IMG/VR virus record: IMGVR_UViG_2695420708_000004
DNA: 27,567 nt
Source: a virus
Taxonomy: Duplodnaviria > Heunggongvirae > Uroviricota > Caudoviricetes
Reading direction: 5' to 3' (one strand)
This document shows, piece by piece, positions 1 to 3,000 of the stretch. Every line of letters starts with the position of its first letter. The first letter of the stretch is position 1. The position numbers were made by a program.

Positions 1-3000
1 AGTGATAACAGATGTCTGGAAATATAGGGGCAAATCCAATCGTCGCCGTATTCCCGTATTAACAGAGACCGTAGCCCGACGGGGAACTCCTTCTGCGCGA
101 GTGTGCGGGAATAATCAAAAACGATGCACACCGGGGTTACCGGGTACACATATTTCATCATGCCAGCGAGTCCGGTTCTGGCACGGAAGAAACCGGACGT
201 TATGATTTAGTGCGGAAATATTTGTGTAGTGTTCTGTATGTTCTCAGTAAAGAGTAATGAATTATCAAAGGTATAGTAATACCTTTTGTTTTCGTGGATA
301 TTTGTAATCCATCTGAAAACCCCTGCTGTAGCAAGATTTTTCCTGTATTCGTAAAATGATAACTCTCCTGATTTGAATCCTTTTAAGGTGGCTTCTATAA
401 GGCATTTATTTTTTGAAAATCTTACATTTACAACCTTACCCTGTCCTTTTATTAAAACCGTATTATCGTTTTCAAGAACAAGATGAATATTCTCTGTGGC
501 TAAATAGTAAATGTAATGTGAGACATTGTGACGTTTTAGTTCAGAATAAAACCAGTGATAGTTTAAATTATTTCGCACTTTATCGAATATTTGTTTAAAA
601 ATGGCAACCTGAGCCATTGTAGTACCTTCCATGTGATATGAGGGGGCGTAGTCTGCACGATTATCTAAATTGCTTCAATCTGGTCTAACCTGTTTTCTGA
701 GCAATTCAGTAATGTCACTCTTTTCTTTGTTTGCTTCAGGCGAAACTCTTTTTTCTGAGCACAGTCTCCGGCGGCAGGCTTCAATGACCCAGGCTGAGAA
801 ATTCCCGGACCCTTTTTGAACAAGAGCGATGTTAATTTGTTCAATCATTTGGTTAGGAAAGCGGATGTTGCGGGTTGTTGTTCTGCGGGTTCTGTTCTTC
901 GTTGACATGAGGTTGCCCTGTATTCAGTGTCGCTGATTTGTATTGTCTGAAGTTGTTTTTACGTTAAGTTGATGCAGATCAATTAATACGATACCTGCGT
1001 CATAATTGATTATTTGACGTGGTTTGATGGCGTAGATGCACGTTGTGACATGTAGATGATAATTATTATCATTTTGCGGGTCCTTTCCGGCGATCCGACA
1101 GGTTACGGGGCGGAAGGCGCGCGGGTTTTCGCTATTTATGACAATTTTCCGGTTTAAGGCGTTTCCGTTCTTCTTCGCCGTAACCTAATGTTTTTATTTA
1201 AAACACCCCCTGAAAAGAAAGGAAACGACAGGTGCTGAAAACGGGCTTTTTGGCCTCTGTCGTTTCCTTTCTCTGTTTTTGTCCGTGGAATGAACAATGG
1301 AAGTCAACAAAAAGCAGCTGGCTGACATTTTCGGTGCGAGTATCCGTACCATTCAGAACTGGCAGGAACAGGGAATGCCCGTTCTGCGAGGCGGTGGCAA
1401 GGGTAATGAGGTGCTTTATGACTCTGCCGCCGTTATAAGATGGTATGCCGAAAGGGATGCTGAAATTGAGAACGAAAAGCTGCGCCGGGAAGTTGAAGAA
1501 CTGCGGCAGGCCAGCGAGACAGATCTCCAGCCAGGGACTATTGAGTACGAACGCCATCGACTTACGCGTGCGCAGGCCGACGCACAGGAGCTGAAAAATG
1601 CCAGAGACTCCGCTGAAGTGGTGGAAACCGCATTCTGTACTTTCGTGCTGTCGCGGATCGCAGGTGAAATTGCCAGTATTCTCGACGGGATCCCCCTGTC
1701 GGTGCAGCGGCGTTTTCCGGAACTGGAAAACCGACATGTTGATTTCCTGAAACGGGATATCATCAAAGCCATGAACAAAGCAGCCGCGCTGGATGAACTG
1801 ATACCGGGGTTGCTGAGTGAATATATCGAACAGTCAGGTTAACAGGCTGCGGCATTTTGTCCGCGCCGGGCTTCGCTCACTGTTCAGGCCGGAGCCACAG
1901 ACCGCCGTTGAATGGGCGGATGCTAATTACTATCTCCCGAAAGAATCCGCATACCAGGAAGGGCGCTGGGAAACACTGCCCTTTCAGCGGGCCATCATGA
2001 ATGCGATGGGCAGCGACTACATCCGTGAGGTGAATGTGGTGAAGTCTGCCCGTGTCGGTTATTCCAAAATGCTGCTGGGTGTTTATGCCTACTTTATAGA
2101 GCATAAGCAGCGCAACACACTTATCTGGTTGCCGACGGATGGTGATGCCGAGAACTTTATGAAAACCCACGTTGAGCCGACCATCCGCGATATTCCGTCG
2201 CTGCTGGCGCTGGCTCCGTGGTATGGCAAAAAGCACCGGGATAACACGCTCACTATGAAGCGTTTTTCCAATGGTCGTGGCTTCTGGTGCCTGGGCGGTA
2301 AAGCGGCAAAAAACTACCGTGAAAAGTCGGTGGATGTGGCGGGTTATGATGAACTTGCTGCCTTTGATGAGGATATTGAACAGGAAGGCTCTCCGACGTT
2401 CCTTGGCGACAAACGTATTGAAGGCTCGGTCTGGCCAAAGTCCATCCGTGGCTCCACGCCCAAAGTGAGAGGCACCTGCCAGATTGAGCGTGCAGCCAGT
2501 GAATCCCCGCATTTTATGCGTTTTCATGTTGCCTGCCCGCACTGCGGGGAGGAGCAGTATCTTAAATTTGGCGACAAAGAGACGCCGTTTGGCCTCAAAT
2601 GGACGCCGGATGACCCCTCCAGCGTGTTTTATCTCTGCGAGCATAATGCCTGCGTCATCCGCCAGCAGGAGCTGGACTTTACTGATGCCCGTTATATCTG
2701 CGAAAAGACCGGGATCTGGACCCGTGATGGCATTCTCTGGTTTTCGTCATCCGGTGAAGAGATTGAGCCACCTGACAGTGTGACCTTTCACATCTGGACA
2801 GCGTACAGCCCGTTCACCACCTGGGTGCAGATTGTCAAAGACTGGATGAAAACGAAAGGGGATACGGGAAAACGTAAAACCTTCGTAAACACCACGCTCG
2901 GTGAGACGTGGGAGGCGAAAATTGGCGAACGTCCGGATGCTGAAGTGATGGCAGAGCGGAAAGAGCATTATTCAGCGCCCGTTCCTGACCGTGTGGCTTA

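Follow-up and report, generated by a model that had tools for sequence, protein, structure and literature searches.

The ynfO-ydfO region beside cos in a lambdoid phage genome: two separately mobile accessory genes rather than an obligate pair

The IMG/VR virus record IMGVR_UViG_2695420708_000004 is a DNA stretch of 27,567 nucleotides from a virus of the Caudoviricetes (this whole stretch is called the window in the following), and its start is the right end of a lambdoid phage genome, which leads via cos into the genes Nu1 (1297-1842) and A (1817-3742). Just upstream of cos, two small genes are encoded on the minus strand: a ynfO-like gene for a protein of 77 amino acids (aa), which probably has a ribbon-helix-helix (RHH) core, and a ydfO-like gene for a protein of the DUF1398 family. 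This cassette is the already known and widespread lambdoid ynfO-ydfO region, with nothing new in the window, and its two genes turn out to be separately mobile accessory genes that do not form an obligate pair. An earlier inspection of the DNA alone (the sequence-only reading) had described the two open reading frames (ORFs), and they are found as described, at 675-908 (77 aa) and 207-632 (141 aa) with a gap of 42 nt between the maximal ORFs. Also the placement just upstream of cos had been seen correctly, as alignment to lambda puts the cosN 12-mer at 1108-1119, at a distance of 200 bp from the RHH start codon, and the proposed moron-like position is right in that lambda has homologs of both genes in the same spot. 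The ORFs are not due to chance, since the probability of 141 stop-free codons at the local base composition is about 9e-6, and since both genes match curated families and are under purifying selection. The features of the region are compiled in Table 1.

Table 1. Positions of the genes and of the known or putative sites of the cassette in the window.
Feature	Position	Strand	Remarks
ynfO-like gene (probable RHH)	675..908	-	77 aa; core 759-908 (residues 1-50), very basic; tail 675-758, variable
ydfO-like DUF1398 gene	207..617	-	probable product of 136 aa from M6; maximal ORF to 632 (141 aa)
Shine-Dalgarno-like GGAAGG	625-630	-	before M6 of the DUF1398 gene
PdhR-box-like palindrome AACAGGTTAGACCAGAT	678..694	-	overlaps the end of the RHH gene; the conserved DUF1398 upstream block begins here
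Sigma-70 promoter-like site TAGACC-16-GATAAT	660..687	-	consensus match 9/12; directly upstream of the DUF1398 gene
Structured region 3' of the DUF1398 stop	117..198	-	hairpin 170-198; second GC-rich hairpin followed by U5 at ~117-150
Spacer from RHH start codon to cosN	909..1107	.	presumed RHH promoter/operator region; nearly identical in lambda, Qin and DLP12
cosQ	1078-1084		in the 909-1107 spacer

The 77-aa protein had been described as resembling YnfO/YlcI, and profile searches confirm this identity. It matches DUF3950 of Pfam (PF13132) with 72.8 bits (cut-off 25; E 2e-20), the NCBIfam family YlcI_YnfO_N (NF041551) with 35.2 bits (cut-off 30) and phrog_949 with an E-value of 6e-33, is about 96% identical to annotated E. 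coli proteins of the YlcI/YnfO family, and equals YnfO of E. coli K-12 in length and position. The core (residues 1-50) is almost invariant, whereas the tail is hypervariable and wholly different even among close relatives. In comparison with the copies of Stx phages, the ratio of nonsynonymous to synonymous differences (pN/pS) of the core is 0.13-0.14 at a pS of 0.5-0.65, which indicates purifying selection. A cis-acting site as the cause of the conservation of the 5' DNA of the gene was also considered and could be rejected, because the synonymous divergence is high while the protein stays conserved.

With an isoelectric point (pI) of 10.9 the protein is strongly basic, and the AlphaFold2 (AF2) model of the monomer begins with an extended basic arm, which is followed by helices at residues 19-32 and 34-52 (mean predicted local distance difference test, pLDDT, 67; about 80 in the core). 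No beta-strand is predicted in this model, which is expected because the monomer would be only half of the intertwined dimer of an RHH protein. In the Qin-type tail, AF2 predicts an extra helix at residues 59-73. The sequence carries NIRFP...KGSGNFS, and hhalign aligns TRNIRFPNQMIEQINIALVQKG with the segment QFNLRWPREVLDLVRKVAEENG of Arc (the Arc query was checked against PDB entry 1arq), with NIRFP on NLRWP in the same register, a weak match with P = 0.029. Like Arc and Mnt of P22 and the plasmid-encoded CopG, the protein thus has a unit of about 50 residues with a basic N-terminal arm, a strand motif N-[IL]-R-[FW]-P and two helices joined by a G-x-x-x-x-S turn, and the predicted helices are at matching positions. 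It differs from these repressors in that no significant sequence or fold match is obtained and in the variable C-terminal tail, which is absent from Arc. The best Foldseek matches of the model are TCP-domain and ParD2 structures, none of them significant, which we take to be RHH-type folds, and RHH antitoxins recur among the weak matches of the protein, again none significant. A Pfam scan of 20 homologs of the gene at E-values up to 10 gave no RHH family, and a PDB sequence profile search with the family alignment gave no match. The RHH assignment of the sequence-only reading is plausible in view of the helices, the Arc register and the recurring RHH antitoxins, and it is unproven in that none of these matches is significant; the core is probably an RHH DNA-binding domain.

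The larger protein had been likened to YdfO/YbcV, and this is right as well. Pfam DUF1398 (PF07166) is matched with 147 bits (cut-off 22; E 3e-43) over all profile positions (1-119 of 119), and phmmer aligns residues 1-140 with PDB entry 2hh8, the nuclear magnetic resonance (NMR) structure of E. coli YdfO, with an E-value of 1.4e-69 and about 80% identity. The gene most likely starts at M6 and then covers 207-617, since the ATG of M6 (window position 617) is conserved, the Shine-Dalgarno-like sequence lies ahead of it, and RefSeq annotates 136 aa; in lambda and DLP12, a 1-nt indel puts the first ATG of the 141-aa ORF into another frame. With the M6 start the spacer to the RHH gene is 57 nt. 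The lambda gene with a DUF1398 product is annotated with an over-extended start, giving 177 aa.

DUF1398 is under purifying selection (pN/pS 0.37 versus lambda), and its product is a basic (pI 9.4) and hydrophilic protein, in the sequence of which there is no signal peptide and no hydrophobic or membrane segment. The near-invariant positions of the family are only aromatic residues, Gly, Ala, Thr, Asn or Arg; no acidic residue, His, Cys or Ser is conserved throughout, and conserved residues of a catalytic type are absent. A PDB sequence profile search with the family alignment gave only 2hh8, and when the DUF1398 profile was run with HMMER against 1.84 billion representatives, only 262 matches were found, most of them fragments or frameshifted copies that probably derive from lambda control DNA, and no informative domain fusion was among them; the family is a narrow one. 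In the databases there are hundreds of frameshifted or fused variants of both cassette proteins on ENA contigs of about 3.5 kb, which inflate match counts and create spurious fusions of DUF1398 with DUF3950. These contigs give the impression of a lambda control amplicon, presumably the 3.6-kb nanopore control, that was assembled with many errors, and do not look like biological diversity. The two halves of the DUF1398 protein (residues ~20-53 and 88-129 of the 141-aa ORF) are weakly alike (hhalign, P = 0.0026), which suggests an internal duplication of a helix-plus-beta-hairpin unit. As to physiology, a strong response of K-12 ydfO to imidazolium stress has been described (PMC4077768). That YdfO overexpression would lead to oxidative-stress resistance (PMC4077768) could not be traced to the cryptic-prophage paper that was checked, which does not mention ydfO, and is not used here.

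The two genes are found much more often apart than together. By tblastn, the RHH gene is found in 155 phage records and the DUF1398 gene in 43. In the Stx phages Stx2a_WGPS8 and JLK-2012, the RHH gene is solo and divergent from an HNH endonuclease gene and unrelated TerS/TerL genes, and no co-directional ORF lies behind it. The nucleotide homology between the lambda-type and the Stx-type arrangement starts at the ATG of the RHH gene and resumes in a terminator-like block, which is here located just downstream of the DUF1398 gene. DUF1398 in turn occurs alone, with no YlcI/YnfO ORF within 4 kb, at 20 of 20 loci in Kluyvera, Klebsiella, Pseudocitrobacter, Raoultella and Salmonella, and the neighbours of these lone genes differ between the five genera. 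Also ycgX of E. coli, next to bluR, is a DUF1398 gene without such a partner. YcgX and its orthologs, including that of S. enterica diarizonae, have the core AGVF(K/R)W...R.Y and about 130 aa in common with the window protein, but are only 26-35% identical to it, and they are encoded by stand-alone chromosomal genes in AT-rich spacers, without an RHH neighbour or a phage context. The RHH and the DUF1398 gene are therefore two separately mobile accessory genes and not an obligate pair.

Two properties of a moron, in the sense of Juhala et al. (2000), are found. The slot between the RHH core and the terminator-like block shows presence/absence variation between genes that are adjacent in related phages: it is empty in Stx2a_WGPS8, contains DUF1398 here and in Qin, and contains DUF1398 together with ybcW in lambda and DLP12. 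The distinct base composition, for which the whole cassette had been called AT-rich, holds for the DUF1398 gene (31.4-31.7% GC) and for the RHH tail (36.9%), but not for the RHH core, which with 48.7% is near the phage average (whole window 54.7%; Nu1 and A 52.7-54.0%).

Of the known relatives, the Qin prophage of K-12 has the same arrangement. Its ynfO and ydfO (b4533-b1549) belong to the same families, have the same order, the same 57-nt spacer and the same strand relation to the Nu1 homolog nohA, which points leftward, followed by ynfO and ydfO that both point rightward, and the same PdhR-box-like palindrome is present at the ynfO/ydfO junction. Qin is a decayed prophage, however, whereas the cassette of the window lies beside an apparently intact Nu1/A packaging module, and about 20% of the residues differ between the YdfO of Qin and the DUF1398 protein of the window. 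The right end of lambda consists of bor, lambdap78, lambdap79, an often unannotated 64-aa ORF and cos, and the order in DLP12 is borD, ybcV, ybcW, ylcI and nohD. In both, the DUF1398 homolog has 76% aa identity, the RHH core has 94.5% identity over residues 1-55, position and orientation relative to cos are the same, and the flanking non-coding blocks are common with the window. What sets them apart is an insert of about 635 bp between the RHH and the DUF1398 gene, which carries ybcW/lambdap79 on the late strand and is absent from the window; it goes along with a different, shorter RHH tail, and the breakpoints, at window ~690 and 764, fall into the RHH gene's 3' tail. The 64-aa YlcI-like ORF of lambda (PV340536; J02459 48139-48303) has no feature in the classical J02459 record.

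The region is very common. Of 5426 complete E. coli genomes, 5099 contain DNA that matches window positions 1-1300 (from the cassette via the cos spacer to the start of Nu1), 2636 of them with a match over at least 80% of this length, and such DNA is also present, at 98-99% identity, in isolated phages such as PhiR49_1, Kati, Chlobot and ev099. The cosN 12-mer of the window is GGGCGGAAGGCG, and that of lambda is the canonical GGGCGGCGACCT, which is kept also in Qin, DLP12 and a 98.8%-identical prophage of E. coli D3; the flanks are conserved. The exact 32-mer around the variant cosN occurs in 14 IMG/VR contigs, 13 of which contain the RHH gene and 12 the adjacent DUF1398 gene, and as the variant recurs in this way, there is a real lineage with a different cohesive end.

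With respect to control elements, a GGT(C/T)AGACC palindrome about 75 nt before M6 marks, in the window, Qin, DLP12 and lambda alike, the start of the block that travels with DUF1398. The PdhR-box-like sequence of the window matches the PdhR site that was found by systematic evolution of ligands by exponential enrichment (SELEX) at ynfO/ydfO of Qin, except for the unspecified central triplet, and is kept upstream of ybcV in DLP12 and lambda. In K-12, PdhR SELEX peaks have been detected at ybcV/ybcW and ynfO/ydfO, and the ybcV mRNA was 10-fold lower in a pdhR mutant (PMC7660256). To judge from the motif, PdhR may bind at this site also in the present phage. The promoter-like site directly upstream of DUF1398 overlaps the palindrome and is inside the block that is conserved in all four arrangements; promoter-like sites in the region are consensus matches only, their number being not above shuffle expectation. 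The RNA downstream of the DUF1398 stop codon (117-198) folds with -38.2 kcal/mol (RNAfold; z = -4.07 versus shuffles), and the hairpin with U5 at 117-150 looks like an intrinsic terminator. In Stx2a_WGPS8, a sequence that follows the solo RHH gene at a distance of about 230 bp is highly similar to this terminator-like block over about 130 nt, and lambda has the block as well.

On the other side of the RHH gene, the spacer to cos contains a 13-nt inverted repeat, ATCAATTAATACG / CGTCATAATTGAT, at 978-990/998-1010, which is identical in lambda and is a candidate operator, and a second candidate repeat for an RHH operator is found at 682-690. Just left of cosQ there is a Fur-box-like palindrome, ATGATAATTATTATCAT, at 1056-1072, which overlaps a promoter-like site on the plus strand (GTGACA-16-TATCAT, 1045-1072, 10/12) that is directed toward cos and Nu1. 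The Qin Nu1 homolog nohA has been listed as Fur-bound and Fur-repressed, with a chromatin immunoprecipitation (ChIP) peak of FNR (PMC3688515), and a host iron control of the terminase-proximal promoter seems, from these motifs, to be conserved in intact lambdoid phages. A scan of window positions 1-1300 with Rfam gave only chance miRNA-like matches on the cosB hairpin. At the other end of the window, the small RNA IS009 of Rfam (RF02111) has a full-length match at 26532-26730(+) with 218 bits (gathering score 117).

Taken together, the cassette can be understood as a Qin-type accessory region between the lysis genes and cos that is expressed from the prophage, is dispensable for lytic growth, and consists of a small repressor and a variable cargo slot; the probability of this explanation is estimated at about 0.6. 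By analogy to Arc and CopG, the position-locked protein of this type would be a dimer that represses the transcription of its own unit, and the cargo slot would be the region between the RHH gene and the conserved terminator-like block. Here, the slot would be filled by the AT-rich DUF1398 gene, with a control block of its own that may respond to host factors. The DUF1398 product would be a soluble, basic alpha/beta protein of 136 aa that may bind a host macromolecule and thereby modify host physiology, be it as lysogenic conversion or as a stress response, and it is presumably neither an enzyme, nor a part of the virion, nor a toxin. As the unit is antisense to the late operon, expression from the prophage is to be expected. 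That lytic growth does not require it is supported in lambda, where CRISPR interference (CRISPRi) with the DUF1398 homolog lambdap78 resulted in an efficiency of plating (EOP) of 1.9 (PMC10695390), and where recombinants with Qin are viable: lambdap79 activates the Vulcan NADase defence, and lambda-vir escapes by a recombination with Qin that deletes lambdap79 (bioRxiv 10.64898/2026.09.04.749371). As Qin has the adjacent ynfO-ydfO layout, these escapers should carry the layout of the window.

Several points weigh against this explanation. Expression of the cassette in lysogens is something that we infer from its orientation, and how DUF1398 acts is a guess, the AF2 model of this protein being so poor (pLDDT 47.7, from a 20-sequence alignment of close relatives) that it was discarded; Foldseek retrieved with it only 2hh8, with a template modelling (TM) score of 0.34. 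In a survey of 2025, the ycgX/DUF1398 family is listed as unassignable (PMC12356324). Transposon-directed insertion-site sequencing (TraDIS) placed ydfO of the K-12 Qin prophage among the genes that are "essential only by TraDIS", in a low-insertion group with antitoxins and many small, AT-rich acquired genes (PMC5821084); the low insertion frequency probably reflects a cold spot due to AT-rich DNA. A consensus scan of the 909-1107 spacer gave no minus-strand sigma-70 site for the RHH gene, and no operator of the RHH protein was identified, the DNA upstream of the gene being different in the lambda-type and the Stx-type context. As this DNA is not common to the two contexts, autoregulation by the RHH protein has the status of an analogy.

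The RHH protein could instead mainly regulate the adjacent packaging or late region, for example by silencing terminase transcription in the prophage, and not the cassette. This would explain why the RHH gene keeps its place at the lysis/packaging junction even where the terminases are unrelated, and it agrees with the strong purifying selection on the core, with the conserved position divergent from the first packaging gene in phages of both the Nu1/A type and the HNH plus TerS/TerL type, and with the promoter-like site at 1045-1072 that is aimed at Nu1. That site, however, is already overlapped by the Fur-box-like palindrome, and nohA has been reported to be Fur-bound (PMC3688515), while the two packaging types have different DNA upstream of the RHH gene, with no common operator being visible. 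A regulator of packaging is an unlikely assignment.

Another possibility is that DUF1398, alone or together with the RHH protein as its regulator, is a cargo for anti-phage defence, superinfection exclusion or counter-defence. The gene occupies a variable slot for morons in lambdoid prophages and runs antisense to the late genes, the fast turnover of cargo is typical of an arms race between phage and host, and Vulcan senses lambdap79, the neighbouring gene of this slot in lambda, so that the region does interact with immunity. A search of PADLOC-DB v2, however, gave no match of the RHH protein and for DUF1398 only Csx23 as best match, which is not significant (E 0.025, 12.6 bits), there are no conserved catalytic residues, and no publication was found that ties DUF1398, YdfO, YbcV or YcgX to defence. 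Furthermore, several genera have an ortholog such as ycgX as a stable single gene of the chromosome, outside any prophage, and because of this a role in host physiology fits better than a defence function, which is rather improbable. In a broader version, YlcI/YnfO would head a conserved, prophage-expressed cargo-slot unit at the lysis/packaging junction, the cargo of which turns over under host immunity, with DUF1398 serving immunity-related functions or host takeover and the RHH protein being its lysogeny switch; the cargo in such a turnover may be DUF1398 or, on the other strand, the Vulcan-sensed lambdap79. This is an equally doubtful proposal.

The sequence-only reading had pointed out that a small DNA-binding protein followed by a larger partner is also the layout of toxin-antitoxin and some abortive-infection pairs, and such a role is not supported. 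In a type II system, the RHH protein would be an autoregulating antitoxin with a C-terminal tail that neutralises a DUF1398 toxin, or the polarity would be reversed. A small DNA-binding gene followed 42-57 nt further by a larger gene on the same strand, the extra predicted helix at 59-73 in the Qin-type tail, and the few transposon insertions that TraDIS found in ydfO, as in higA, hipB and relB (PMC5821084), are all in agreement with such a system. But toxins and antitoxins have to be inherited together, and here each gene is found far more often without than with the other (155 versus 43 records; RHH solo in Stx phages; DUF1398 solo at all 20 loci and as ycgX). More than 500 bp and a gene on the opposite strand separate the two in lambda and DLP12, DUF1398 has its own upstream control block, and the RHH tail is hypervariable and does not track the partner, which stays 70-80% identical. 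The larger protein belongs to no known toxin family, as Pfam gives DUF1398 only and conserved acidic, His, Cys or Ser residues are absent, and PADLOC offers no significant match; moreover, YdfO could be produced for the NMR structure 2hh8. A match of the DUF1398 protein to HEPN_AbiA_CTD was rejected, as it scored 15.8 bits at a cut-off of 27 and was obtained with 1 of 13 family members. With ParD/ParE, RelB/RelE and MazE6/7 of M. tuberculosis the cassette has in common a small gene, probably for an RHH protein, that precedes a larger co-directional gene, as well as weak structural matches, but here the partners are not co-inherited, the second one has a control region of its own, and it is not of a known toxin family. 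It is thus very unlikely that the two genes are a toxin-antitoxin system.

It is hardly conceivable that the 141-aa product is the "head protein" of a virion (the label of PHROG and RefSeq) or a "putative envelope protein" (the old label in lambda and DE3), as these names, used for phrog_413 ("head protein") and in several GenBank records (either label), seem to have been carried over between annotations without an experimental basis, and as the gene is AT-rich and opposite in strand to all head genes, the knock-down of lambdap78 leaves plating unreduced (EOP 1.9, PMC10695390), the homologs include single chromosomal genes without phage context, and the protein sequence has no signal peptide or hydrophobic segment.

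For practical purposes, the two genes should not be annotated or tested as a toxin-antitoxin pair, the labels "head" and "envelope" are without support, and the start of DUF1398 is most likely M6. The homologs of ynfO and ydfO are among the last unexplained ORFs of phage lambda, and as these ORFs are lambda's own and the region matches 5099 of 5426 E. coli genomes, their function would close a gap in this model system. The region is best viewed as a conserved small regulator with an exchangeable cargo slot, beside lambdap79, a gene that is sensed by a defence system.

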